A stretch of DNA of 64,000 nt from the NCBI GenBank assembly GCA_944391515.1, contig CALXTW010000001.1, positions 1,378 to 65,377 on the forward strand, in the 5' to 3' direction. Shown piece by piece: positions 8,124 to 58,774 of the stretch; position 1 is the first letter of the stretch, and every line of letters begins with the position of its first letter. The stretch is from an uncultured Alphaproteobacteria bacterium. Lineage in GTDB: Bacteria > Pseudomonadota > Alphaproteobacteria > RF32 > CAG-239. The notes under the pieces are model-generated. The model was not told the DNA's origin. It worked only from the letters and a program-made list of their open reading frames with translations, and searched no databases. The translations under genes were made by a program, and so were the position numbers.

Positions 8124-8750
8124 ATGCCTAGTATCTTGTTTTTATCTGACAATGAAGGATTTGCCGAAGATTTATGCGGGCAGATTCACCTCTATGCTCC
8201 CGAATTTTCTATTGAAAGAGAAGATGATGATGCGTCCTATGATATTTATATCTTAGATGAAAAGAGAGAGCTTTTGCCTCGTTTGCGAGAAAAACATGTA
8301 AAATCACCAATCGTGTTGCTGGAAAAAAATGTTGACGGTTTAACCGAAAGTGGTGATTTGGTGTTTTTGGTTGAAAAACCTTTCCGTCTCAATGAGTTTT
8401 TGAACAATTTACGCTCTTGTATTAACAAGTTTGAAAACAGCAGTGATGCTTATTTGACATTTAATAACTATGAGCTTCATCCTTTAGCTAAAGAGATTTT
8501 GAACCTGCGCAATAATGAGCTCATCAAACTCACCGAAAAAGAAGTGGCGGTGATTAAATATCTTTACAAAGCAAAAGATAAAATCGTCAGCAAAACCGAT
8601 TTGTTACAAGATGTGTGGGATTATAATGCCGAAGTTTCAACCCATACAATTGAAACGCATATTTACCGCCTCAGACAAAAGGTGGAGCATGATGATGTAG
8701 ATGCTCAACTCATCATTACCGAAAACGGCGGTTATAAGCTCAAATTCTAG
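8124..8750 (+). CDS. OmpR-family winged-helix regulator with an atypical receiver domain (orphan response regulator)
   Basis: C-terminal Trans_reg_C pattern LTEKEVAVIKYL...SKTDLLQDVWDYN...THTIETHIYRLRQKV...GGYKL. N-terminal receiver-like region with YILDEK and KPF, but SDNE replaces the acidic DD pair. No kinase adjacent. Confidence 0.65.
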   Translation: MPSILFLSDNEGFAEDLCGQIHLYAPEFSIEREDDDASYDIYILDEKRELLPRLREKHVKSPIVLLEKNVDGLTESGDLVFLVEKPFRLNEFLNNLRSCINKFENSSDAYLTFNNYELHPLAKEILNLRNNELIKLTEKEVAVIKYLYKAKDKIVSKTDLLQDVWDYNAEVSTHTIETHIYRLRQKVEHDDVDAQLIITENGGYKLKF

Positions 8751-15576: not shown

Positions 15577-18338
15577 TGCGCTTGGGCCCAGTTGTCGCCG
15601 ATACCGACTTCGGCAATAAAGGGAACATCATAATTCACCACGTTTTGCATGGTTTCTTTTATCATTTCTGAGACGGCGGTAACCTCTTCTTCGGGTGCTT
15701 CAAACACCAATTCATCATGCACTTGTAAGAGCATTTTGGTTTTGAAATTTCCTTGTTGCAATTTTTTAAATACAGCGTTCATTGCCATTTTGATAATATC
15801 GGCCGCACCGCCTTGTATCGGTGCATTTATGGCCGCACGTTCAGCGTTCATGGAAACACGCTTATTCTTATCGTTTATGCCATTTACTGTGCATTTGCGC
15901 CCAAATGGCGTTAGGACATAGCCGTTTTTGTGAGCAAAGGCTTTGGTGTCTTCCATAAACTGTTTTATCTCAGGCATTTCACGAAAATAAGCATCAATAT
16001 AAGCCTTGGCCTCTTCGGTGGAGACATCAATCTGCTTGGCCAAGCCATACTGCGAAATGCCGTAAATAATACCAAAATTTATGGCCTTGGCATGGCGGCG
16101 TTGATTGGGTGTGACCTCACTCAAAGGCACGCCAAAAACTCTTGAAGCGGTTGAAGCATGAATATCTTTGTTTTCGGCAAAGGCTTGTTTGAGCCCGTGG
16201 ACATTGGCCACCACCGCCATGAGCCGAAGTTCAACCTGAGAATAGTCTGCCGCCACAATCTTACAGCCCTTGGAAGCAACAAAACTTTCGCGAATTTTTT
16301 TGCCCTCTTCACTGCGAATAGGAATATTTTGCAAATTCGGGTTATTGGACGCCAGACGTCCGGTTGAGGTGGTGATTTGATTATAGGTGGTGTGGACGCG
16401 ATCTGCCTTATCCATTTGCTCGGTTAGGGCATCGGTATAAGTGGATTTGAGTTTGCTCAAGGCGCGCCAATCCAAAATGCGGGCGGCGAGTTCATTGCCC
16501 TCGGCGGCTAAGTCCTCAAGCACCTCGGCTCCGGTTTGCCATGCGCCGGTCGCCGTTTTTTTGCCCTTGGCACCTAATTTACCAAACAAAATATCGCCGA
16601 TTTGCTTGGGCGAGGCGATGTTAAACTCCTCTCCGGCAAGGTGATAAATTTGTTGCTCGTAGTCTTGCATTTTGGTAGCAAAATCAGCACTCAAGCGGCG
16701 TAAATTCTCACGATTGACTTTTATGCCCGCACTTTCCATAGTTTGCAAAATACGAACCAAGGGGCGGTCAAGGTCTTCATAAACACTCATTTGGTGCTCG
16801 GAAAACAGGCGTGGTTTTAAGACTTGGTGCAAACGCAAGGTAAAGTCTGCGTCCTCGGCGGCATAAGCCAAGGCTTTGTCTAATTCAACCTTATCAAAAG
16901 TGATTTTGTTTTTGCCTGAGCCGCAAACCTCCTCATAAGCTATCATTTGGTGGTCAAAATAGGTTTTGGCTAATTCATCGAGCCCATGGCCGTGTTCGGT
17001 ACCATCTAAGACATAAGAAATAACTGCCGTATCGTCATAAGGCGCAATTAGGCAATCAGCGCCTAAAACTTGTTGCATAAAGTGCATGTCAAATTTGATG
17101 TTATGGCCGATTTTGAGTATCGACTTGCCCTCAAACAAGGGTTTGAGATATTTGGCGATAATCTCATAGCTTAATTGTTGCGGGGCATTTGTTTGATTAG
17201 AACCAAAAAGGTCTAAATTTGACTTTTCATCACTCTTGAAATGGTTGAGCGGAACATAGCAAGCCTCTCCGGCAGAAGTCGCCATAGAAAAGCCCACAAT
17301 CTTATCAAACTGCGGATTGAGCCCATTGGTTTCGGTATCAAAGGCAAAATAGCCGGTTTGCTTGATTTTTTCTGCCCAGAGCTTTAAGGTCTTTTCATCT
17401 TGGACAAGCTGATAATTGGCTTTTATCTCTTGAGGCTGCGCTTTAAATACAGTGTTCTCACCTTCTTCGGAACAGCGTTCAGAAACCCATTTTTCAACCC
17501 TAGGACGAATGGAATTAAACCCATAGCGCGAGACAAAATCCATGATGGTACCAAGGTCTGGTTTTTGGCAAGGAAAATCCTCAATCGGCTGGGTGGTGGG
17601 AACATCGGCTTTAAGGGTTACCAATTGGAGTGAGATTTCTGCTTGGTCCTTATTTGCTATCAAGGTTTCGCGGCGTTTGTTTTGTTTGATTTCTTCAGCG
17701 CGAGCCAAAACCTCACCTAGGGAGCCAAATTGATTAATGAGTTCGGCAGCTGTTTTGAGCCCAATGCCCGGAACGCCTGGAATATTATCGGTGCTGTCAC
17801 CGGCAAGCGCCTGAACATCAACCACGCGATTGGGATATACACCAAACTTTTCACGCACGTCTTCAGGGGTGAAGTATTTGTCTTTCATCGGGTCAAAAAA
17901 CTCAACACCGGGGCGTATTAACTGCATCAAATCTTTATCGGCCGAAACAATCGTGACCTCATAGCCTTTTTGCAGGGATTGGGCAGCATAGGTAGCGATT
18001 AGGTCGTCAGCCTCATAGCCTTCCATATCCAAAAAGTGCAAATTAAGCGCTTTTACCGCTTGGTGAATAATCTCAAACTGAGGGATTAAATCCTCGGGAA
18101 TTTCTTTTCTGGTGCCTTTGTAATCAGGAAAAATATCGTTGCGGAAATTTTGCCTTTTGGCATCAAACAACACCAGCCAATAGTCGCTTTTGATTTTTTG
18201 CGTCAGGCGCATAAACATATTGGTAAAGCCATAAACCGCGTTTACAGGTGTTCCCTCTGGACTGGTCAAAGGTGGAAGGGCGTAAAATGCTCGGAAAATG
18301 TATCCAGAGCCATCAATTAGGCATACTTTTTTGGTCAT
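15573..18338 (-). CDS. polA: DNA polymerase I
   Basis: 5'-3' exo N-terminus (VCLIDGSGYIFRAFYA). 3'-5' exo (FAFDTETNGL). Polymerase motifs RRHAKAINFGIIYG and LLQVHDELVFE. 921 aa. Confidence 0.95.
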   Translation of the reverse strand: MTKKVCLIDGSGYIFRAFYALPPLTSPEGTPVNAVYGFTNMFMRLTQKIKSDYWLVLFDAKRQNFRNDIFPDYKGTRKEIPEDLIPQFEIIHQAVKALNLHFLDMEGYEADDLIATYAAQSLQKGYEVTIVSADKDLMQLIRPGVEFFDPMKDKYFTPEDVREKFGVYPNRVVDVQALAGDSTDNIPGVPGIGLKTAAELINQFGSLGEVLARAEEIKQNKRRETLIANKDQAEISLQLVTLKADVPTTQPIEDFPCQKPDLGTIMDFVSRYGFNSIRPRVEKWVSERCSEEGENTVFKAQPQEIKANYQLVQDEKTLKLWAEKIKQTGYFAFDTETNGLNPQFDKIVGFSMATSAGEACYVPLNHFKSDEKSNLDLFGSNQTNAPQQLSYEIIAKYLKPLFEGKSILKIGHNIKFDMHFMQQVLGADCLIAPYDDTAVISYVLDGTEHGHGLDELAKTYFDHQMIAYEEVCGSGKNKITFDKVELDKALAYAAEDADFTLRLHQVLKPRLFSEHQMSVYEDLDRPLVRILQTMESAGIKVNRENLRRLSADFATKMQDYEQQIYHLAGEEFNIASPKQIGDILFGKLGAKGKKTATGAWQTGAEVLEDLAAEGNELAARILDWRALSKLKSTYTDALTEQMDKADRVHTTYNQITTSTGRLASNNPNLQNIPIRSEEGKKIRESFVASKGCKIVAADYSQVELRLMAVVANVHGLKQAFAENKDIHASTASRVFGVPLSEVTPNQRRHAKAINFGIIYGISQYGLAKQIDVSTEEAKAYIDAYFREMPEIKQFMEDTKAFAHKNGYVLTPFGRKCTVNGINDKNKRVSMNAERAAINAPIQGGAADIIKMAMNAVFKKLQQGNFKTKMLLQVHDELVFEAPEEEVTAVSEMIKETMQNVVNYDVPFIAEVGIGDNWAQAH
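17442..17455 (+). repeat. Copy of the 14-bp dispersed motif TTTAAATACAGTGT (inside polA)
   Basis: Exact match. Encodes NTVFKA on the coding (minus) strand. Confidence 0.8.
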
Positions 18339-29117: not shown

Positions 29118-29137
29118 TAAATTATCTTCTTTAATTT

Positions 29138-29236
29138 GAGGTGGAGGACGAATGACCTTAACCTTATTCGTTACGGCTGCTTCCTTCCGGACCTGACCGG
29201 GTTGGCGAAGGGCTAACCCAACGTCCTCCTTTAGAC
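29138..29236 (-). ncRNA. ffs: Signal recognition particle RNA (4.5S/SRP RNA)
   Basis: Minus-strand sequence ACCCGGUCAGGUCCGGAAGGAAGCAGCC matches the universally conserved SRP RNA domain IV motif. It is enclosed by a long closing stem (ggaggacg/cgtcctcc). A local GC island. The classic position immediately upstream of dnaX. Confidence 0.75.
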
Positions 29237-39800: not shown

Positions 39801-40426
39801 TATTTAACTCCTTTAAGTTTTGCTAATTTGGTTATGACTAAAATGACACCCTCTGACGAAGTTTCGCTCGGGTGAATTTGACACTCAAAACGCCAATGTT
39901 TTTTGGCTTCATCAATTTCTTCTTGATACTTTTTACCTTTGGGAAAAATACATATCGTATCTTTTTTACAAAATGGATATGTATATTCCAACAAATCTTT
40001 CAAAGATGTCATCGCTCGTGAAGTAACAACATCAACTTTGTTTTTGGGAAGCGATTCGATTCTTTGATTGAGAATTTCAACATTTACAGAACAAATTTCC
40101 GACACATGTTTTAAATACAGTGTTTTTTTATTAATACTTTCAATCAAGCTTACTTTTAAATACGGTGTTTTTTCTGCAGCCATAATTGCCAACACCATTC
40201 CGGGGAAACCAGCGCCAGACCCAAAGTCATAAAGGTTTTGCGCTGATTGAGGAATATATTTAAAAAGCTGCATCGAGTCGATAAAGTGACGATTCCACGC
40301 ATCTTCTAAAGAGGATTTACTTACCAAGTTAAACTTATTTTGCCACTCTTGGAGAGAGGTTTCATAAGCTCTTAACTTGAGCATTGTTTCACGTGAAACA
40401 TCATATTTTTGCATTTCGTTTTCCAT
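39800..40426 (-). CDS. rsmG: 16S rRNA (guanine527-N7)-methyltransferase
   Basis: DFGSGAGFPGMVLAI SAM motif. GidB family. Synteny with parAB. Confidence 0.85.
   Translation of the reverse strand: MENEMQKYDVSRETMLKLRAYETSLQEWQNKFNLVSKSSLEDAWNRHFIDSMQLFKYIPQSAQNLYDFGSGAGFPGMVLAIMAAEKTPYLKVSLIESINKKTLYLKHVSEICSVNVEILNQRIESLPKNKVDVVTSRAMTSLKDLLEYTYPFCKKDTICIFPKGKKYQEEIDEAKKHWRFECQIHPSETSSEGVILVITKLAKLKGVK
40110..40123 (+). repeat. Copy of the 14-bp motif TTTAAATACAGTGT (inside rsmG)
   Basis: Exact match. Encodes TLYLK in rsmG. Confidence 0.8.
40155..40168 (+). repeat. Copy of the 14-bp motif, G variant TTTAAATACGGTGT (inside rsmG)
   Basis: One substitution. Encodes TPYLK. Lies 32 nt from the previous copy. 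Confidence 0.8.
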
Positions 40427-40568
40427 ACAAAAATTTATATATTTTTTATAAAAAATTTAAAAGATTTTTATATGAGTTATAAACACATTATTTAAGCAAT
40501 TTTAAAATTATTTTAAATTCAATTAGATAATCATCTATATTGAATCTGTACCTTAATATTTTAAGATT

Positions 40569-40582
40569 TTTAAATACAGTGT
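40569..40582 (+). repeat. Copy of the 14-bp motif TTTAAATACAGTGT (intergenic, rsmG promoter region)
   Basis: Exact match in a non-coding AT-rich spacer. Confidence 0.8.
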
Positions 40583-40586
40583 TTTG

Positions 40587-41387
40587 TTATAAAGACCAGC
40601 GTTTTGCGGTGTTTAATTGCACTAATAAATCCTCCGCCTCGCCAAAATATTGCCCAAGCTGTGAAACAGAATGTGCATCATCGCTTATCAGCAACGGAAT
40701 ATCATTTTTTACCAAATCTTCCATAATCCAGCGGGCAGGGTAGAATGAGCCGATAGAGTTTTTTCCTTTGGTGTTAATTTCGGTCGGCATTTTTTGTACT
40801 TTTAATGCGGTTACGATTCCTTTAATCTCATCAACAAAATCATATTCACCAATAACACCACTCCAGCGGGCGAAATCAATATGAGCTAAAAAGGTAAATT
40901 CACCACTTTCAACAGCTTCACAAATATTATTAAAATGATTACGAAAAAGCTCTTTTATTTTTGTTTCAGACAATCCATATCTCTGAAAATGATAAATCTC
41001 ATAAACCTCTGTTCCGTCTTTATTGGTTACCTGGTGGTTACCGTTTATGAGATAATCAACATCTATCTTTTGCTTAAACTCTCTAAACTCATCCAGCCAA
41101 CCTGGAATTGGAAAATAATCAACCTCAAAACCGGCATAAACTTTAATTTCGGGATTTTCTTCACCAACTTGTCTTATGGCGGCAATATGCTTTTTTACCG
41201 GCTCTAGAGCCTCTTTAAATGATGAAAAATAGGTATATCCTTTGCTCAAAGTTGGATGTATGCTCAAGTGATCGCTAATTCCAATAGCTCTCCAACCCAA
41301 CTTTTTGGCTTGGGCAACCATTTCCGAAATGCTGTTTTTACCATCAGAAAAGGTTGTATGCGTGTGAAGAGAAAAATTTTGTATCAT
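40587..41387 (-). CDS. PHP-domain phosphoesterase (histidinol-phosphatase-like family)
   Basis: LHTHTTFSDG...IGISDH... N-terminal PHP motifs and downstream His/Asp ligands. Translationally coupled to the upstream HD genes. Confidence 0.7.
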   Translation of the reverse strand: MIQNFSLHTHTTFSDGKNSISEMVAQAKKLGWRAIGISDHLSIHPTLSKGYTYFSSFKEALEPVKKHIAAIRQVGEENPEIKVYAGFEVDYFPIPGWLDEFREFKQKIDVDYLINGNHQVTNKDGTEVYEIYHFQRYGLSETKIKELFRNHFNNICEAVESGEFTFLAHIDFARWSGVIGEYDFVDEIKGIVTALKVQKMPTEINTKGKNSIGSFYPARWIMEDLVKNDIPLLISDDAHSVSQLGQYFGEAEDLLVQLNTAKRWSL

Positions 41388-42001
41388 CTCTTTATTCCTA
41401 AAACCTCGTAACTATCGCAATCACATTTATTATCAATATATGTTTTAAGTTTAAATACACCGTTTTTTAGGGTATTTTGCTGCAATTCATTTAGATTATA
41501 CCTTTGAGTTATTCCTGCTATGCGATTTTCTAATGATGTAATTTCCATTCCTTCAAAAAACATATCAGCATATTGGACTATTCGGTCGTAGTCGTCATAC
41601 GTTATATTTTTCAGCAATGTTCTGCATTCTTCCAACCAATGTGGGGGGTATGAAAAATCTTCATTTGAAAAATTCTTATCTTTAAAAGTATGGGTTAAAC
41701 AGATTTTAGCAACATCGGGATAACCATATTCTAATAAGTCATAGTAACCTATTACACCGTGAAATCTATCGTCTTGCTTTTCATCAATTCTCTTTCCGTA
41801 ATCGTGAAGCAGTCCTAAGGCAAAAGCCTTATCTCCATTTAAGCCCATTTTATTTGCTAATCGCGATGAAAAATCGGCAACACCACGTGAGTGAAAAATA
41901 TATTCTTTATCAATTTGCGGGGTTTTTGTTTGATGTTCTCTAGAATAATTTATACCATCTTGCCAAATTTTTTCTGCTTCCTCTTTTGTTGGATAATTCA
42001 T
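41384..42001 (-). CDS. HD-domain phosphohydrolase, paralog 1 (YqeK/HDIG-like)
   Basis: H...HD metal motif (FHSRGVA...LGLLHDYGK). ICLTHTF motif. Conserved C-terminus KCDCDSYEVLGI. Confidence 0.65.
   Translation of the reverse strand: MNYPTKEEAEKIWQDGINYSREHQTKTPQIDKEYIFHSRGVADFSSRLANKMGLNGDKAFALGLLHDYGKRIDEKQDDRFHGVIGYYDLLEYGYPDVAKICLTHTFKDKNFSNEDFSYPPHWLEECRTLLKNITYDDYDRIVQYADMFFEGMEITSLENRIAGITQRYNLNELQQNTLKNGVFKLKTYIDNKCDCDSYEVLGIKR
41442..41455 (+). repeat. Variant copy TTTAAATACACCGT (inside HD paralog 1)
   Basis: The first 9 nt are identical. The second half is the inverted complement of the GGTGT variant. Confidence 0.5.
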
Positions 42002-42621
42002 TATTTTATTCCCAACAATTCATAAATGTTGCAATTACATTTTGCATTAAAATACAACAGTCGATTTTTGATGATATTTGAAAATTGTCTTATCTGATCT
42101 TGACTTATTGGATAACGGTTCGCCAAAGATGAAAAGCGATATTCTATTGTACAATCTGTTCCCATGTCGTTTAGAATGTCTGTTAGTTGAATTAAATAAT
42201 CATAATCATTATATTCAATTTGAGATAAAAACTTCAAACATGAGGAAATATCATCATTACAAACATTATCGCTTTTTACTTCAAAACCTTTTTCATAAAA
42301 ATTATGAGTGATACAAATTCGAGCTATATCGCTCCAACCTTTTGAGCTCATTAACTGATAACCAATCCAGCTATGATGACGATTTTCGGCTTTTTCATCT
42401 CTGATACGTCCACAGTCGTGCAGCAATCCCATTACAAAACAAAGCTCAGGATTCATATCAGATGTGCGAGAGGCTATTTTTTGAGCGTTTTTTGCAACTT
42501 TATTACAGTGCTCTCTAAATGTTTTTTCCCATTCTGGCAAAAAAGGGTAGGGGCTTGAATTGCGCTCTTTGATGACATATTCAAAAAAATCTTCTGCTTC
42601 ATTGATATTTGGATAAGACAT
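42001..42621 (-). CDS. HD-domain phosphohydrolase, paralog 2
   Basis: MGLLHDCGRIRDE, ICITHNF, C-terminus KCNCNIYELLGIK. Start set at MSYPNINEAE by alignment to paralog 1. The ORF track extends to 42672. Confidence 0.6.
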   Translation of the reverse strand: MSYPNINEAEDFFEYVIKERNSSPYPFLPEWEKTFREHCNKVAKNAQKIASRTSDMNPELCFVMGLLHDCGRIRDEKAENRHHSWIGYQLMSSKGWSDIARICITHNFYEKGFEVKSDNVCNDDISSCLKFLSQIEYNDYDYLIQLTDILNDMGTDCTIEYRFSSLANRYPISQDQIRQFSNIIKNRLLYFNAKCNCNIYELLGIK

Positions 42622-42622
42622 T

Positions 42623-43246
42623 TTAATTAACTCCGAGAAGTTTATAAATATCGCAGCCGCATTTGGCATCAAAATAGCTTTTCAACTTAAGAGCTTCGCG
42701 ATATTTTTTCTTTAATTGCACTGTCGGAATTTTATAGGCGTTTTGCAGATATTTCATCCGCTCTTTGAGATTATAGTTTACGCCGATTGATAGTCTGTCA
42801 CAAAGTTGAATCAGGCGGTCGTAATCATCAAAAGGAACTTCTTGTATTAGTTTACGACATTTTCTCATTTCTGAGGGATTGTATGAAGCATATTCTTTTA
42901 TATTGAGCTCTTGCTCATAAAAAGTATGCGTCAAACAGATACGAGCAAGTTCATCATAACCAAGTTTGTTTAGTGCTTTATATCCCTCTAAGCCATGAAA
43001 TTTATCTGAGCGTTCATAATCATAGGTGAGTTTGCCGTAGTCATGAAATAATCCCATAATATAGGCTTTTTGACCATCAATTTCAGGCAAGCGTGAGGCT
43101 ATCATTTCGGCACAAACAGCCACCATCGCAGAGTGGATTCTGAAGTTTTTGGCAATACCAAACTCAAAACGTGAAGATTGCTCACAGCGTTGTTTTAAGG
43201 TTTGTTCAAAAAGTTTCAGAGCTTCTTGCATGGTTGGCATCGTCAT
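42623..43246 (-). CDS. HD-domain phosphohydrolase, paralog 3
   Basis: MGLFHDYGKLT, ICLTHTF, C-terminus KCGCDIYKLLGVN. The start is 4 nt after the mnmG stop. Confidence 0.65.
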   Translation of the reverse strand: MTMPTMQEALKLFEQTLKQRCEQSSRFEFGIAKNFRIHSAMVAVCAEMIASRLPEIDGQKAYIMGLFHDYGKLTYDYERSDKFHGLEGYKALNKLGYDELARICLTHTFYEQELNIKEYASYNPSEMRKCRKLIQEVPFDDYDRLIQLCDRLSIGVNYNLKERMKYLQNAYKIPTVQLKKKYREALKLKSYFDAKCGCDIYKLLGVN

Positions 43247-43249
43247 AGC

Positions 43250-45106
43250 TCACCTCTTTACATAGCCCAAAATTGCAGTTATAGCCGCAGGAGTTACTCC
43301 CGGAATGCGAGATGCTTCTCCTATGGTTGCAGGACGAACTCGAGATAGTTTTTGCACCATTTCACGAGATAAGCCACCGATTTTGGCATAATCAATATCT
43401 TCTCTGATTTTGAGTTTTTCGTCTTTTTGGAAGACTTCAATATCGGCTTGTTGTCTTTTTAGGTATCCTGAATATTTGGCTTCAATCTCAATTTCTTCAT
43501 AAACATCATTGGGAATATTTTGCAACTGCGGCCAGAGAAGGTTGATTGTTTCACGTGAAACACCGTCATAAGACATTACATTGAACGCCGTTCTCTTGGT
43601 GCCGTCACGTTTGGTTTTTATGCCATATTCTTCTAGCTTGTTCGGGTTGATTGTCAAGCTCTCACAAAGCTCACGATATTTATTAATTGCATCGGATTTG
43701 GCTTTAAATACAGTGTATCTTTTTTCACTGACACAGCCAACATTATGGCCAAGTTCGGTTAAACGCAAGTCAGCATTATCTGCTCGCAGCAATAAACGAT
43801 ATTCTGAGCGAGAGGTAAACATACGATAAGGTTCATCAACACCTTGGGTAATTAAGTCATCTACCATAACACCGATATAGGCTTGGCTGCGGTTAATGGT
43901 GAATTTACGTCCTTTGCCCTCGGCATAAAGCGCGGCATTTACACCGGCAAGAAGTCCTTGTGCTGCGGCTTCCTCATAACCGGTCGTACCATTGATTTGT
44001 CCGGCTAAAAACAAGCCTGATACTTTTTTGGTTTCTAGCGTGTTGGTTAGTTCTTGCGGGTCAACATAGTCATATTCAATCGCATAAGCATAACGCAAGA
44101 TTTCAACATCTTCCAAACCCTCAATGGTATGAATAAATTGTTCTTGAACATCGGCCGGCAAGGAGGTTGATATTCCGTTTGGATAAACAACGTCCGTGTT
44201 CAAACCTTCCGGTTCCAAAAAGATTTGATGGCTGGTTCGGTCAGCAAATTTTACCAATTTATCTTCAATACTTGGGCAATATCTTGGACCAACACCTTTG
44301 ATTAACCCTGAAAACAAAGCGCATTTCGAGAAGTTATCTCGGATGATTTTGTGTGTTTTCTCATTTGTATGGGTTATATAACACTGTATTTGCGGATTGG
44401 TGATTTCTTTGGTTAGATAAGAAAAGGGTTGCGGAGGATAATCACCATCTTGGGTATCCAATTTTTCCCAATGTATGGTTTTGCCATTCAAACGGGCAGG
44501 GGTTCCGGTTTTGAGACGACCGACTTTTAGGCCTTTTTGCTTTAAATACGGTGTTATACCTGTGCAGCTTACATCGCCAATTCGGCCACCAATAGAGGTT
44601 TCGTGTCCAACAAACATTACACCGTTTAAGAATGTGCCTGAAGTCAGAACGACGGCTTGGGCTGAGATTTCGCTTCCGTCAGCTAAGATTACACCGGTGA
44701 CTTTATCGCCCTCAAAAAGCAATCCTTCAACAGCGGCTTCAAGAATAGTCAGATTGCTTTGCGCTTGCAAAGCTTCTAACATATATTTTTTATATAATTC
44801 TCGGTCGGCTTGCGCACGCGGGCCTCTAACAGCCGGTCCTTTAGATTGGTTTAGCATACGGAATTGAATACCGCCTTTATCAATCACTCTGCCCATTAAG
44901 CCATCTAAAGCATCAATCTCTCTGACCAAGTGACCTTTGCCAAGTCCCCCAATTGCCGGATTGCATGACATGGCGCCAATGGTGTCAATTTTGTGTGTGA
45001 TGAGCAAAGTGTTTGCTCCGGTTCTGGCCGCTGCGGCGCAGGCTTCACATCCGGCATGTCCGCCGCCAACGACAATTACATCATATTTTTTATTATTGTT
45101 CTTCAT
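43250..45106 (-). CDS. mnmG: tRNA uridine 5-carboxymethylaminomethyl modification enzyme MnmG (GidA)
   Basis: FAD motif [15 protein letters not shown] and conserved GidA core throughout. 618 aa. Confidence 0.95.
43703..43716 (+). repeat. Copy of the 14-bp motif TTTAAATACAGTGT (inside mnmG)
   Basis: Exact match. Encodes YTVFKA. Confidence 0.8.
44541..44554 (+). repeat. Copy of the 14-bp motif, G variant TTTAAATACGGTGT (inside mnmG)
   Basis: Encodes TPYLKQ in a different reading frame from the copy at 43703. Confidence 0.8.
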
Positions 45107-45245
45107 TTATTCGTCCTTTTCTGCCTGTATGACAGATTTTATTTGCGGCTATTTTAACACAAAAAATATTATCAAGCCGTTAACTACCCTCTCATTTAAA
45201 AGCAAAAAACCGCTCTTTTGAGCGGTTTTAGGATAAATATTTGCG

Positions 45246-45623
45246 TTAGAAAACGTGATTTTCAACACAATATTGCCAGTAGTCATAAACTTTTTCTCGC
45301 GGTAATACAGCCGGGCAAAGGATAACAACCGAAAAAATATAACGCCAGCAAAGATAGCGATTGTAAGCACAAAAATCTTTGTTGTTCATCAGATAAGTTG
45401 CTCTATCTTGTAACCAATATCTAAGGTTTGAAATTTCTTCCTTATACATTACTGGGTATGAAGAAAATGCAAAACCTGATTCTTTACTTCTTTGGCAGAG
45501 TTTCTGAAATGCTTCCCGGATTTTTTGAGTGAGCCCTTCTTCATTTTTCAAAAGTTCTTCTTCGGAAAAAACACTAATTCGATTGGTGATGAGTTTTTCC
45601 AATCCGTCTGAATAATTTTCCAT
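45246..45623 (-). CDS. Hypothetical protein (125 aa) inserted between mnmE and mnmG
   Basis: Intact ORF followed by the hairpin aaccgctc-tttt-gagcggtt at 45205-45228, with a T-run in the minus-strand sense. No known motif. Confidence 0.4.
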   Translation of the reverse strand: MENYSDGLEKLITNRISVFSEEELLKNEEGLTQKIREAFQKLCQRSKESGFAFSSYPVMYKEEISNLRYWLQDRATYLMNNKDFCAYNRYLCWRYIFSVVILCPAVLPREKVYDYWQYCVENHVF

Positions 45624-45715
45624 ACAAACAAATTTTTTAAGTTAAACAATAATAAAATATGTGCTTTGGTTAGAGCACATATTTTATTTAAAATCAAGTA
45701 TTTCTTAGCCTTAAA

Positions 45716-47131
45716 TTACTTGCCGATACAAAATGAACCAAAGATTTTATCCAAGATATCATCCACTTCGATACGGCCGGTGATTTTTCCTAATCCACGG
45801 GCGGCCATACGGATGTCTTCGGCGGCAAGCTCAATCTCTTTTTGCAGATTAAAAGCCTGCAGAGCCTCTAATGTTTCATTTAGTGCTTCTCTGTAACGAG
45901 CACGCGTTATCAGCAAATTAGAATTTGATGTAAAGCGGCTTTCAATTTGAGTAGTGATTGCGTTTAAGAGTTTTTCCAAACCTTCTTTGGGTTTGGCGGC
46001 AATAACTATGCAGCCGCTGTTTACTAATTCTTGTCTTGTATCTTCGGAAATGCAATCAGCCTTATTGGCAACAAAAAGCATTTTATCAGAAATTGTTTTT
46101 TTAAGATTATCAAAGATGTGAACACTGTCTTGTGAGGCATCAAATAAACATAATACCAAGTCGGCTTCTTTGATTTTATCATAAGCAATTTCTATTCCGC
46201 GTTTTTCAATAGCGTCTTCAACTTCTCTTAAACCGGCCGTGTCGGTAAACATTACCGGATAGCCTTTTAGGTCTAAATGAACATCAACAGCATCACGCGT
46301 GGTGCCGGCTATATTTGAAACTATCGCCGCCTCGCGATTGACAATCGCATTTAATAAGCTCGACTTTCCGGCATTGGGAGGGCCAACAATTACAACCCTA
46401 AAACCTTCTCTTAGGCGCTCACCAATATTATCTCCTTTTAGGTGTTCGGAGATTTTATGTGCAAGTTTAAATACAGTGTCCTCAAGTTTAAATACAGTGT
46501 CTTGAGGAATATCTTCATCAGGAAAATCAATATAAGCCTCCAGATAAGCCATAACCTGCAAGAGTTCTTCACGCCAACCTTCATAAAGATTTTTTAATCC
46601 GCCTTCCATTTGGCGCATGGCATATTTTTGCTGTTCAGAGGTTTCGGCATCTATCAAGTCTGCCAATCCTTCTGCCTGAGTTAAATCCATTTTGCCGTTA
46701 TAAAAAGCGCGTTTGGAATATTCACCCGGTTCGGCCAGACGATAACCTTCTATCTGACTTAATGAGGCAAGGACTCCGGAAATTACGGCCTTGGAGCCGT
46801 GAATCTGTAATTCGACGATATCTTCTCCCGTGAAAGAATATGGTGCCTTAAAATACAAAACCAGGCTTTTATCAAGTAATCTTTTTTCAGGCAAAGAATA
46901 AATATTGGTAAAATAGGCATAACGGGCTTTGATTGTATCAACTTTAATGTCCGTCATCTGTTCTATGACCTTGAGAGCTTTGTCTCCGGAAATTCGAATA
47001 ACCGCTACTCCTGATTTTCCAAATACGGTCGATAGAGCATAAATTGTTTTGTTATCCATTTTTTTATCCTGTTTGATTTTGATTTGGGCTGAATATAACA
47101 CAAAATTCTTAAAAAAACAGCAAATTCTCAT
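45716..47131 (-). CDS. mnmE: tRNA modification GTPase MnmE (TrmE)
   Basis: G1 GPPNAGKSSLLN. G3 DTAGLR. C-terminal FCIGK. Contains an in-frame tandem DTVFKLE/DTVFKLA repeat encoded by the 21-bp duplication. Confidence 0.9.
   Translation of the reverse strand: MRICCFFKNFVLYSAQIKIKQDKKMDNKTIYALSTVFGKSGVAVIRISGDKALKVIEQMTDIKVDTIKARYAYFTNIYSLPEKRLLDKSLVLYFKAPYSFTGEDIVELQIHGSKAVISGVLASLSQIEGYRLAEPGEYSKRAFYNGKMDLTQAEGLADLIDAETSEQQKYAMRQMEGGLKNLYEGWREELLQVMAYLEAYIDFPDEDIPQDTVFKLEDTVFKLAHKISEHLKGDNIGERLREGFRVVIVGPPNAGKSSLLNAIVNREAAIVSNIAGTTRDAVDVHLDLKGYPVMFTDTAGLREVEDAIEKRGIEIAYDKIKEADLVLCLFDASQDSVHIFDNLKKTISDKMLFVANKADCISEDTRQELVNSGCIVIAAKPKEGLEKLLNAITTQIESRFTSNSNLLITRARYREALNETLEALQAFNLQKEIELAAEDIRMAARGLGKITGRIEVDDILDKIFGSFCIGK
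46462..46503 (+). repeat. 21-bp direct tandem duplication (caagtttaaatacagtgtcyt x2), each unit carrying the 14-bp motif, inside mnmE
   Basis: Units at 46462-46482 and 46483-46503. Motif copies at 46466-46479 and 46487-46500. Encodes the in-frame DTVFKLE/DTVFKLA repeat. Confidence 0.85.
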
Positions 47132-49716: not shown

Positions 49717-50236
49717 GGAAACCTTAAATATGATTGGAATTAATATTAAAGAAATATAAATAAGTAGGAACTATATTAAATAGTATAAGTTTATATATGC
49801 TTAAAATTTAAAACTGTCAAATAAAGTTTGGAGTTTTTTTAGGGCAGTTTTATGCACATCCTTCCTTGCCAATATAAATTTAAAAAAAATATGTAGTTAT
49901 TAGTATATTCCTGTGAGTTTTGTGGATAAGTTTTTATCTTCAGAGTTATGCAGAAGTTAATGCTTTGTTAATAATTGTGTTAACTAAAATTAAACAATGG
50001 TTAAGGAATCGTTAAAATATTTTTAGGTTAAAAATGTAAATACAAATTTTGGTTCGTTGTATATAACTTTTTTATCCCCAGAAAGTGAATCAATTCAAGG
50101 CTTGTGCGTAACTTGGATGATTAGATTTTACATTATGGTGATTAATTTGTATAAAGACTGAAGAAGGGCTAGTTATGCACAGTTTTGGGTGCTTTTGTGC
50201 ATAAGTGAGTCAAGCCTTTGTTTTTGGAGATTTTTT

Positions 50237-58236: not shown

Positions 58237-58318
58237 GTTGATTTGTCTTGTATTTTGTTTTATAGTTCAACCATAAGTAAATGTTTTGGGCACTATATGC
58301 CCGTTAGAAGGAGTATTT

Positions 58319-58774
58319 ATGGTGAAGAAAAATAAAAGAGGTCGGTTGGATGACGGTAGCCCGAATCCGGTTGATGTGGCGGTTGGTAAAAAGATTTGTG
58401 AAAGAAGAAATGAATTAGGTTGGTCTATGGAGAAATTGTCTTCGGCTCTTGGTTTAACCTTTCAACAAATTCAAAAATATGAAAAAGGGGCTAACCGTGT
58501 AAGTGCTAGTAGATTATATGATATAAGCAAAGTTTTGGGGGTTGGTATAGATTATTTTTTTGCAGATATTGACGATGAGGCTGCCAAAAAAAGTCCAAGA
58601 CAAGTATTATCAAGTGAGATATTGGAGAAATTTGATGATCCGATGACTTGGGAAGAAAGTAAAACTTTGGCACAAGCCTATTATCAGATTAAAGATAGAG
58701 AGTTGGCGCGGACTATGCTGGAGTTGATGATGAGTATTTCTTCTTCAAGCGATAAGGAAAACGAGTTATTTTAG
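58319..58774 (+). CDS. XRE-family HTH transcriptional regulator, paralog of 15130..15576
   Basis: LGWSMEKLSSALGLTFQQIQKYEKGANRV. RBS agaaggag. Start set at MVKKNKRG. Confidence 0.7.
   Translation: MVKKNKRGRLDDGSPNPVDVAVGKKICERRNELGWSMEKLSSALGLTFQQIQKYEKGANRVSASRLYDISKVLGVGIDYFFADIDDEAAKKSPRQVLSSEILEKFDDPMTWEESKTLAQAYYQIKDRELARTMLELMMSISSSSDKENELF

Follow-up and report, generated by a model that had tools for sequence, protein, structure and literature searches.

A strictly co-oriented DNA motif conserved around the parS sites of uncultured gut alphaproteobacteria

Results

Motif M and the genes that carry it

The window (the whole 64-kb stretch of alphaproteobacterial DNA analysed here) contains the genes mnmE, mnmG, rsmG, parA and parB, HD- and PHP-domain genes, polA, and a predicted replication origin between rho and coaE. 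A short motif, M, recurs in this region together with two parS sites. The features, with M given on the gene strand, are as follows.

49717–50188, unstranded: predicted oriC, between rho and coaE, without M
46487–46500, minus strand: M in mnmE, codons D187–K191 of the 447-aa protein, frame xTVFK; counterpart at this position in a subset of relatives
46466–46479, minus strand: M in mnmE, codons D194–K198; conserved more widely than any other site in the clade
44541–44554, minus strand: M in mnmG, ITPYLK at about aa 184–189, in the other reading frame
43703–43716, minus strand: M in mnmG, RYTVFK at about aa 463–468
43547–43562, unstranded: second perfect parS, in mnmG, likewise encoding VSRET
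41450–41463, minus strand: M variant TTTAAATACACCGT in the third HD-domain gene, NGVFK; fits the clade consensus
40569–40582, minus strand: intergenic M, 4 nt 3' of the PHP-domain gene stop codon, upstream of rsmG
40385–40400, unstranded: perfect canonical parS (TGTTTCACGTGAAACA) in rsmG, encoding VSRET; conserved in relatives
40155–40168, minus strand: M in rsmG, KTPYLK at about ORF aa 86–91
40110–40123, minus strand: M in rsmG, KKTLYLK at about ORF aa 100–106
17442–17455, minus strand: M in polA, a lineage-specific site
15765–15778, minus strand: M in polA (TTTAAATACAGCGT), fitting the wider consensus

The predicted oriC holds five to six clustered DnaA boxes (one perfect), two TTAA-N7-TTAA CtrA-type boxes and AT-rich sequence. 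The canonical DnaA boxes of the window are clustered at 49.85–50.28 kb, apart from M, and the region upstream of dnaA has a single near-box. The gene rho adjoins the M region.

Eight exact copies of TTTAAATACRGTGT are present in the window, every one on the plus strand (starts 17442, 40110, 40155, 40569, 43703, 44541, 46466 and 46487), where 100 dinucleotide shuffles yielded none and none was expected. The over-representation of a one-way word in the original prediction is thus real. That prediction listed nine positions, of which the eight exact ones are correct; its variant, placed at 41442, actually occupies 41450–41463, and a tenth copy in polA, at 15765, had been overlooked. With these two variants, both of which fit the wider consensus, the window total is ten. 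All ten match TTTAAATAC on the plus strand and none does so on the minus strand, as had been claimed for their orientation. All copies lie inside genes but for the one at 40569, which is intergenic.

On the strand of the mnmE-mnmG-rsmG-parA-parB genes the consensus of M reads A-W-A-C-R-N-Y-G-T-A-T-T-T-A-A-A. It is an asymmetric DNA word of 15–16 bases without dyad symmetry, and its architecture is bipartite: a 3–4 bp element, a loose 3-bp spacer and an invariant 9-bp element, together spanning about 1.5 helical turns. Copies are spaced 21 bp to 2.3 kb apart, and most lie in coding sequence; short-range pairs also occur, 21, 31–32, 45 and 73–86 bp apart. About 79 kb of this genome contain only these ten copies, eight of them within 6.4 kb, in agreement with the predicted clustering in mnmE-rsmG. 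An inverted 11-mer is found at 44381 in the window and is not conserved in relatives.

Conservation of the nucleotide sequence

We compared 68 species-level loci of the ingroup (L004–L071), whose MnmE identity ranges from 55 to 97% and whose GC content ranges from 28 to 52%. M was found in all 68, with 3–11 copies per genome, and in none of 11 more distant alphaproteobacterial loci (L072, L074–L083). It occupies the same positions in mnmE, mnmG, rsmG and parB of relatives with no indels, and in relatives it also occurs directly at or after stop codons. With up to two mismatches allowed, 62 of the 68 loci have an orthologous counterpart of the mnmE site at 46466–46479, and the mnmG site at 44541–44554 (ATAACACCGTATTTAAA) is near-invariant over about 55 species. 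In contrast, the conservation of both polA sites does not extend beyond polA relatives with 75% identity or more.

The motif is translated in two frames, as TLYLK/TPYLK and as xTVFK/GVFK, and the original prediction had taken this to mean conservation of DNA rather than protein. Three lines of evidence bear this out. First, synonymous codons are frozen: VFK is encoded by GTATTTAAA in 197 of 250 cases (79%) against 12% expected, YLK is encoded by TATTTAAA 119 times out of 145 (22% expected), and in GC-rich genomes M remains AT-rich among GC-rich codons. Second, a codon-preserving shuffle of all 58 ORFs gave a mean of 0.59 relaxed copies (maximum four in 500 shuffles) compared with nine observed coding copies. 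Third, in an unbiased scan of modal-codon conservation, M is the top peak in mnmE (46466–46479), while in mnmG and rsmG parS is the first peak and M the second (44541–44554 and 40110–40123, respectively); M thus behaves like a known embedded DNA site. M is a cis-acting element under purifying selection on the nucleotide sequence itself. Throughout this lineage of uncultured gut alphaproteobacteria it is held letter-for-letter around parS sites.

Location and polarity

Across the ingroup genomes 396 copies of M point one way and none the other. There are 370 copies in the 468 kb inside mnmE-parB and 26 in 755 kb of flanking sequence, a drop of more than 20-fold (0.79 versus 0.034 per kb), and for 91% of copies the nearest parS is no more than 3 kb away. 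Each locus has one to five canonical parS sites, interleaved with the 3–11 copies of M.

The motif is tied to this location and not to a particular gene or transcript. Its hosts include HD and PHP genes, dnaE, a membrane protein gene and a convergent CCA-adding-enzyme gene. The great majority of copies (more than 90%) are sense to co-oriented genes, and terminators of the same orientation adjoin several of the copies between genes. Where M is antisense to the local gene, as in ddl of L008 and three times in the L059 convergent gene, the common orientation is kept, as it is in L013, L016 and L017, where M lies just 3' of a minus-strand gene. In the window, intrinsic terminators follow mnmE and orf125, so that the copies span more than one transcription unit.

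In this genome the domain of M and parS sites lies 3–10 kb from the predicted oriC. All ten copies are on one side of the origin, with no copy in the 21.7 kb beyond it. In relatives, four independent sites are located 4–7 kb past the DnaA-box cluster, on the other replichore, in the same absolute orientation. In the subclade L053–L071 the 10 kb upstream contain no DnaA-box cluster, yet M and parS are both kept; M therefore tracks parS and the operon rather than oriC.

Discussion

A candidate element of the centromere domain

With the existence, consensus, clade distribution, polarity, parS-region confinement and nucleotide-level selection of M established, its conservation around the parS sites suggests that a sequence-specific factor, as yet undescribed, acts on this region. 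Our preferred reading, which we hold tentatively and at slightly short of an even chance, is that M forms an array of sites for a putative lineage-specific factor on the DNA of a centromere domain beside oriC. Such a factor would read the 3–11 co-oriented sites at the DNA level, and the array and the interleaved parS sites would together mark the centromere domain. Like parS, M is written into whatever sequence is present there, be it variable loops of conserved proteins (in two frames), stop-codon junctions, intergenic DNA or neighbour genes of either orientation. We infer that the reader is a protein that recognises double-stranded DNA, and that M serves in chromosome organisation or segregation; among the roles originally listed, only that of a putative protein-binding site survives. 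The bipartite shape and the absence of dyad symmetry suggest that the reader is monomeric or arranged head-to-tail, and the strict co-orientation suggests a polar higher-order complex or polar function.

One of the closest parallels is the parS/ParB system. Both parS and M are short, form origin-near clusters of several copies per genome, often inside the coding sequence of the same genes, are conserved across species and held at synonymous positions, and have been gained and lost at individual sites between lineages. However, parS is a 16-bp palindrome bound by ParB dimers, whereas M is non-palindromic and strictly co-oriented, shares nothing beyond AAACA with the parS half-site, and coexists with separate perfect parS sites (40385 and 43547). 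An alignment of ParB revealed no feature specific to the M-bearing clade and no ingroup-wide extra domain able to read M.

Asymmetric multi-copy units in one orientation, bipartite over about 1.5 helical turns, are found in parC/ParR, tubC/TubR and Rep iterons, on which monomers or head-to-tail oligomers build a polar nucleoprotein complex. In the form, orientation and number of its units M resembles these direct-repeat plasmid centromeres and iterons, and its reader may be of the same kind. In contrast to M, they form tandem, regular, non-coding arrays by a rep or par gene; copies of M are mostly intragenic, at irregular distances that run from 21 bp to more than 2 kb.

Recognition of double-stranded DNA by a protein is not enough to account for a co-orientation of 396:0. 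To our knowledge, the known families of origin-near chromosomal sites (parS, NBS, ram and DnaA boxes) either are palindromes or are found pointing both ways. It is possible, though on balance doubtful, that a system not described before, particular to this lineage, uses M to recognise one strand, or one polarity, of the centromere domain. This system could be a polar nucleoprotein scaffold working with ParB-parS in segregation or origin-domain organisation, or alternatively a nucleic-acid-guided or single-strand-specific reader. If so, M would define a new class of chromosomal cis-elements that are oriented, occur locally instead of across the whole genome and lie inside essential genes.

Alternative explanations

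The main rival to an array read on DNA is that M acts single-stranded, either in mRNA or in the non-template strand of the transcription bubble, which we consider unlikely. The mRNAs concerned would be those of mnmE, mnmG and rsmG-parAB, with polA or dnaE in some lineages, and M could be bound by an RNA-binding regulator, direct processing or decay, pair with a guide RNA, or recruit an elongation factor in the manner of ops. Strict strand specificity would be expected of such an element, as would the sense orientation of almost every copy in co-oriented genes and a linear motif with a loose internal triplet, whose R and Y degeneracies fit G-U wobble with a guide nucleic acid. Also in keeping with it are the proximity of rho and several intergenic copies found at a stop codon and next to, or within, a terminator hairpin that points the same way (L055, L054-type, L009 and L013). 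However, the orientation of M is kept where the local gene is reversed (ddl in L008 and the three L059 sites), or where there is either a reversed local gene or no co-oriented gene upstream (L016 and L017), and oppositely oriented genes contain no M in the opposite orientation across 1.2 Mb. In addition, the copies belong to three or more transcription units and extend into unrelated neighbour genes, and regulatory RNA sites present in 5–11 copies deep in coding sequence would be unusual.

Nor does M have a conserved structure. Its copies have no hairpin context in common, with a flank complementarity of 3.19 compared with 3.29 in shuffled pairs, and no complementary partner was found in the 64 kb plus the fetched loci. 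In the window, the covariance models of Rfam 15 detected SRP RNA alone, and M matched no RNA family; two sub-threshold matches in 39.8–47.2 kb (45078–45264 and 46097–46148) overlap no copy of M. RfaH ops and boxA are likewise linear and strand-specific; they measure about 12 nt and function in RNA or in the non-template strand. They are located in 5' leaders, always sense, in one or two copies, whereas M is found in 3–11 copies, mostly deep in coding sequence and several of them antisense, and does not match either in sequence.

A further alternative to the array of DNA sites is a Tus-Ter-like polar barrier or pause, or else a site that becomes exposed in the lagging-strand template; either would pass replication and transcription leaving oriC and block or time traffic from the other side. 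Ter sites of Tus and RTP are non-palindromic, may be intragenic, are co-oriented on one arm and function in an orientation-dependent manner. M is similarly asymmetric, and is co-oriented with operon transcription and with replication from the predicted oriC, all window copies lying on one side of it. We nevertheless judge this explanation improbable. Ter sites surround the terminus over hundreds of kilobases in a fork-trap orientation, whereas M is confined to about 10 kb at the centromere or origin; copies across the predicted origin are not mirrored, since the four sites past the DnaA-box cluster keep the same absolute orientation, and L053–L071 retain M without an adjacent origin. We know of no resemblance between M and the Ter consensus.

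A degenerate DnaA box, forming a datA-like cluster that titrates DnaA near the origin, is very improbable. The antisense strand of M (TTAAATACA) agrees with the DnaA-box consensus (TTATNCACA) in six or seven of the nine letters, and M lies near the origin, but the mismatches fall at positions 4 and 6, which are important for DnaA contact. Moreover, the invariant part of M far exceeds a 9-mer, every copy is co-oriented, the canonical boxes cluster apart in an oriC that lacks M, and M is present even where no origin is nearby. The antisense strand also reads TTAA-N7-GTWT and so differs from a CtrA box (TTAA-N7-TTAA); true CtrA-type boxes lie in the predicted oriC.

We give almost no credence to the proposal that M is an uptake, Chi- or KOPS-like signal merely sampled here. 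USS/DUS, Chi and KOPS are, like M, over-represented oriented words found inside genes in several frames. They are, however, genome-wide, at about one per kb to one per 10 kb, and 5–12 nt long (5–8 nt for Chi and KOPS), whereas M is 15–16 nt long and local. Its ten copies in about 79 kb and 0.034 per kb in the flanks of relatives contrast with the high, roughly uniform density of USS/DUS, and some 250 kb around polA in lineage relatives contain no copies beyond polA itself. Chi and KOPS switch orientation at oriC; M has no copy in the 21.7 kb beyond it, and the copies of relatives past the DnaA-box cluster do not switch. The LexA half-site core seen in the original prediction was of the gammaproteobacterial kind in an alphaproteobacterial host. 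LexA boxes are promoter elements, either a dyad (CTGT-N8-ACAG, gamma) or a direct repeat (GTTC-N7-GTTC, alpha); M is intragenic and has no second half-site, and its 'CTG' falls partly in the variable R-N-Y triplet.

The remaining explanation, that M was left by a small mobile repeat or by a segment inserted or duplicated in frame, or follows from a preferred peptide or codon pair, is already contradicted and retains next to no probability. A by-product of codon choice would not appear in two reading frames and in intergenic DNA, exceed the codon-preserving shuffles or stay frozen at synonymous positions over GC contents of 28–52%. A mobile origin is suggested by the mnmE tandem and by L055, in which a 36-nt direct repeat containing M lies on both sides of a 525-bp segment with a small HTH gene. 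However, the sites are orthologous and lack the palindromes, hairpins or terminal inverted repeats of RPE-like elements and MITEs, and there is no insertion polymorphism relative to orthologues: alignments with outgroup genes are free of gaps at the mnmE and mnmG sites and at aa102 of rsmG. The tandem, described originally as a perfect 21-bp duplication that had recently added DTVFKLE-DTVFKLA, is in fact a perfect 19-mer (CAAGTTTAAATACAGTGTC) at period 21, identical at 19 of 21 positions. It adds no residues: of the 120 MnmE relatives listed, 101 share the length of 447 aa (the remainder 413–479 aa), and the double VFKL peptide is common to many genera.

An oriented motif in the genes around parS

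We find that M is a real, deeply conserved and strictly oriented cis-element of 15–16 nucleotides located around the chromosomal centromere. It is written into the centromere-flanking genes of a widespread lineage of uncultured gut Alphaproteobacteria, sampled from human, mouse, chicken, ruminant and rabbit. The exact word TTTAAATACRGTGT occurs eight times in the 64-kb window, on the plus strand only, and dinucleotide shuffles contain none. A mismatch-tolerant search adds copies at 41450 (TTTAAATACACCGT) and 15765 (TTTAAATACAGCGT). The original prediction listed nine copies, of which the eight exact matches and the variant are real; however, the variant lies at 41450 rather than 41442, and in addition to the polA copy at 17442 there is a second one, at 15765, that had been overlooked. 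The copies and the landmarks among which they lie are as follows.

Features of the window (M reads along the minus-strand genes)
49717–50188, predicted oriC between rho and coaE, with DnaA boxes, CtrA-type boxes and AT-rich tracts
46487 and 46466, M in mnmE
44541 and 43703, M in mnmG
43547–43562, perfect canonical parS (TGTTTCACGTGAAACA) in mnmG, translated VSRET
41450, M in an HD-domain gene
40569, M in intergenic DNA
40385–40400, perfect canonical parS (TGTTTCACGTGAAACA) in rsmG, translated VSRET
40155 and 40110, M in rsmG
17442 and 15765, M in polA

The 9-mer TTTAAATAC is present ten times on the plus strand and never on the minus strand of the window, and the genes that carry the motif are on the minus strand without exception. 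It is translated in two frames, giving TLYLK or TPYLK in one and xTVFK or GVFK in the other, so that the predicted single orientation relative to transcription and the use of two frames are both borne out. The intergenic copy at 40569 follows the stop codon of the PHP-domain gene by four nucleotides. When synonymous codons were shuffled within all 58 ORFs, 0.59 relaxed copies were obtained (maximum 4 in 500 shuffles) compared to nine observed in coding sequence. The motif is therefore explained neither by codon usage nor by a favored peptide, an origin that the original prediction had left for such shuffles to decide. An assembly artifact is ruled out because the region is found at 99.99–100% identity in three independent metagenome assemblies.

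Two small genes separate rho from mnmE, after which come orf125, mnmG, three HD-domain genes, a PHP-domain gene, rsmG, parA and parB; dnaA-dnaN-recF and gyrB are at the left end of the window. The predicted oriC holds a cluster of five to six DnaA boxes, one of them perfect (49.85–50.28 kb), and two TTAA-N7-TTAA CtrA-type boxes, one of which contains GAATC. It is approximately 50 kb from dnaA, whose upstream region carries several GANTC sites and a single near-box. GC skew mostly tracks gene orientation and does not discriminate between an origin at rho-coaE and one at dnaA.

Conservation in related genomes

The mnmE neighborhood (±10 kb) was fetched from 80 species-representative genomes. Nearly all of the ingroup loci (L004–L071) contain the exact word ACACYGTATTTAAA on the sense strand, and all 68 the relaxed motif AC-NNN-GTATTTAAA, always on the mnmE strand. 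These loci span MnmE identities of 55–97% and GC contents of 28–52%. In 11 more distant Alphaproteobacteria (L072, L074–L083; MnmE identity at most 51%) M was not found, nor did k-mer counting detect analogous motifs in these outgroups. An alignment of 428 instances anchored on GTATTTAAA yields the consensus A-W-A-C-R-N-Y-G-T-A-T-T-T-A-A-A, with no conservation outside these 16 nucleotides. Sites recur at the following positions.

Recurrent M sites in the ingroup
MnmE codons 194–198, orthologous site (62 of 68 loci, at most two mismatches allowed)
MnmE codons 187–191, orthologous site
MnmG codons ~184–189 and ~463–468, orthologous sites
RsmG codons ~86–91, ~100–106 and ~126, orthologous sites
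ParB, variable linkers
mnmE and mnmG, on or immediately past the stop codons

The closest genomes are metagenome-assembled genomes labeled uncultured Alphaproteobacteria, Azospirillum sp., Azospirillaceae, Rhodospirillaceae or Candidatus Scatocola, from the gut of human, mouse, chicken, deer, sheep and rabbit, which we take to belong to the GTDB order RF32. Six mnmE-parB contigs (L042, L056, L060, L061, L078 and L081) are found in bins named Lactobacillus sp., Eubacteriales, Bacteroidaceae, [Ruminococcus] gnavus, Lactobacillales and Rickettsia typhi; these names are probably binning or labeling errors. The outgroup locus L074 (Candidatus Arcanobacter lacustris, of Rickettsiales type) carries a different 16-mer, approximately CAACCTAGAAACTCAA, five to six times in one orientation on a 9-kb contig around mnmE.

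Selection acts on the nucleotide sequence

Homologous genes do not bear out the suggestion that the motif-bearing segments are insertions. Outgroup sequences of mnmE and mnmG are gapless across the positions of M. For rsmG the outgroup consists of only two sequences, L075 and L083, with gaps of one and six codons in the first site (amino acids 85–89), which is a variable loop. A recent in-frame expansion of mnmE had also been proposed; however, MnmE is 447 amino acids long, as in the query, in 101 of the 120 relatives listed, and the double peptide (D/N)xVFKLE(D/N)TVFKL is common to many genera. The E. coli protein is presumably of equal length in the M-bearing helix. The tandem itself has the predicted period of 21, but its perfect unit is a 19-mer rather than 21 bp; it is a local homogenization of two old sites with no recent gain of residues.

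Conservation at the DNA rather than the protein level, as originally proposed, is evident from frozen synonymous codons. VFK is encoded by GTATTTAAA in 197 of 250 cases, compared to 12% expected from the codon usage of these genes, and YLK by TATTTAAA in 119 of 145 cases (22% predicted). In genomes of approximately 50% GC, M stays AT-rich although its neighboring codons are GC-rich, as in L045 and L046 (GAGAACACCGTATTTAAAGTGAAC). We also scanned modal-codon frequency along the codon alignments, without reference to the motif. In mnmG the highest value belongs to parS (0.96), followed by M at codons 184–188 (0.89); in rsmG parS (0.97) is followed by M at 101–105 (0.82) and 85–89; and in mnmE the top peak is M (0.85). 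M thus behaves like parS, the sole DNA site already known within these genes. The VFK and YLK peptides are found in MnmE, MnmG, RsmG and ParB largely because the DNA must read GTATTTAAA, a clean case of overlapping codes.

M is confined to the neighborhood of parS

In 64 ingroup loci, the 468 kb from mnmE to parB hold 370 copies of M, compared to 26 in 755 kb of flanking sequence, with none on the opposite strand in either. The array begins abruptly at mnmE, and 91% of copies have a parS within 3 kb. Complete loci carry 3–11 copies of M and 1–5 of parS; the parS sites of rsmG and mnmG keep their codon positions throughout the clade, and a third, near the 5' end of mnmE, is found in many relatives. 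Across approximately 79 kb of the present genome (the window with 7 kb of left and 7.7 kb of right flank) there are only ten copies, and none in the 21.7 kb past oriC. Conservation of the two polA copies is limited to polA relatives with 75% identity or more, and approximately 250 kb of polA surroundings in lineage relatives contain no further copy. Viral contigs scanned with AACACYGTATTTAAA showed, among the matches listed, scattered singles, one per contig, as expected of background. Since M is local, the uptake-sequence, Chi-like and KOPS-like roles suggested at first are rejected.

A site acting in DNA or in RNA

Our preferred reading, which we hold tentatively, is that M forms an array of sites at which a putative sequence-specific factor would act on the DNA of the parS domain. 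Copies are found in whatever adjoins parS, including the inserted HD- and PHP-domain genes and intergenic DNA; in the subclade L053–L071 they also occur in dnaE and a membrane-protein gene downstream of parB. In the window, mnmE and orf125 are each followed by a strong terminator, and the copies therefore span several transcription units. The common orientation is kept even against the local gene, as inside ddl in L008, at three sites within the convergent gene for a CCA-adding enzyme that comes after parB in L059, and in L013, L016 and L017, where M abuts the stop codon of a minus-strand gene. The 10 kb upstream of mnmE contain no DnaA-box cluster in the subclade L053–L071, which nevertheless keeps both M and parS, so that M follows the centromere or the operon and not oriC.

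The main rival, which we consider rather unlikely, is that M works at the single-stranded level, as RNA or the non-template strand. Its strict strand specificity, the predominance of sense copies, the position of several intergenic copies next to or within co-oriented terminator hairpins, and the wobble-compatible R and Y degeneracy of the spacer are all consistent with this reading. A few copies are in hairpin loops (mnmE of the window, L055); overall, flank complementarity equals that of the control, and no general hairpin context was found. M has no Rfam match, and no M-complementary partner was detected in the window and fetched loci. A translational sensor built on MnmEG-dependent codons (UUA and AAA within M) was rejected, since copies also occur between genes and in antisense, and AAC-RNY-G, upstream in the motif, is conserved as well.

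The orientation of M is not mirrored around parS, as copies point in the same direction whether they are upstream of the first parS or downstream of the last one. Nor is it mirrored around the predicted origin, past whose DnaA-box cluster four independent sites point the same way at 4–7 kb. The sole rule that covers every one of the 396 copies is that they are co-oriented with each other within the domain. An asymmetric reader on co-oriented sites might build a polar higher-order complex, at which the co-orientation hints; the alternative is a polar function. M implies a putative factor in a core process, whether segregation, organization of the origin domain or control of the mnmE-parB genes, and offers a precise 16-nucleotide bait for finding this reader, with which both the form that is read and the polarity can be addressed.

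Comparison with known elements

M shares its neighborhood with parS and is conserved about equally strongly; in contrast to parS, it is non-palindromic and strictly one-way. To our knowledge, the known centromere and origin-domain families (parS, NBS, ram, DnaA boxes) are either palindromic or found in both orientations. The LexA half-site seen in the original prediction does not hold, as M has no dyad or second repeat, its CTG overlaps the variable triplet in part, and the sites lie inside genes. M matches a DnaA box at only 6–7 of nine positions, and canonical boxes cluster elsewhere. Identity with a CtrA box or a parS half-site was likewise rejected, and we know of no fit of the full consensus or distribution to the NrdR box, Pho box, RNase E site, phage-type promoters or HUH nonanucleotide. 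Searches of a literature library for the M core sequence and for non-palindromic origin-proximal sites returned nothing relevant.

Other features of the region

Three paralogous HD-domain genes (~205 amino acids, each protein ending in C-x-C) and a HisJ-like PHP-domain gene occupy 40587–43246, between mnmG and rsmG. This insert is present in part of the clade and absent from L053–L071. As its products are enzymes and that subclade keeps M without them, we rejected them as a cis-linked M factor. ParB has no ingroup-wide extra domain. Near the origin region are genes for two DNA-binding proteins with no assigned target. One is an orphan winged-helix protein of OmpR type (8124–8750), whose N-terminal 130 amino acids are not recognized as a receiver domain; the other is an XRE-family HTH protein of 151–162 amino acids (58286–58774) adjoining a XerC/D-type recombinase. 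These two and ParB are speculative candidates for the reader of M.

An inverted 11-mer of the motif, AAATACAGTGT, is on the minus strand at 44381–44391, inside mnmG and 150 nucleotides from the copy at 44541; relatives do not conserve it. The window has no tRNA genes, and its sole Rfam match is the bacterial small SRP RNA (29137–29232, minus strand). A Cys-rich small ORF with a CPC...CHC pattern, resembling the catalytic subunit of ferredoxin-thioredoxin reductase, follows parB in more than 35 relatives (e.g. L055, 16372–16614) and was not found in the window.

In L055 (16619–17179), a 36-nucleotide direct repeat carrying M (GAGTCTTTCCAARGGGCGAACGGTGTATTTAAA...) flanks a 525-bp segment with a gene for a 78-amino-acid XRE-type HTH protein, which has no homologue in the other fetched loci. 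The M of the first repeat copy is in the loop of a terminator hairpin, and the segment may represent a small insertion at a terminator that bears M.
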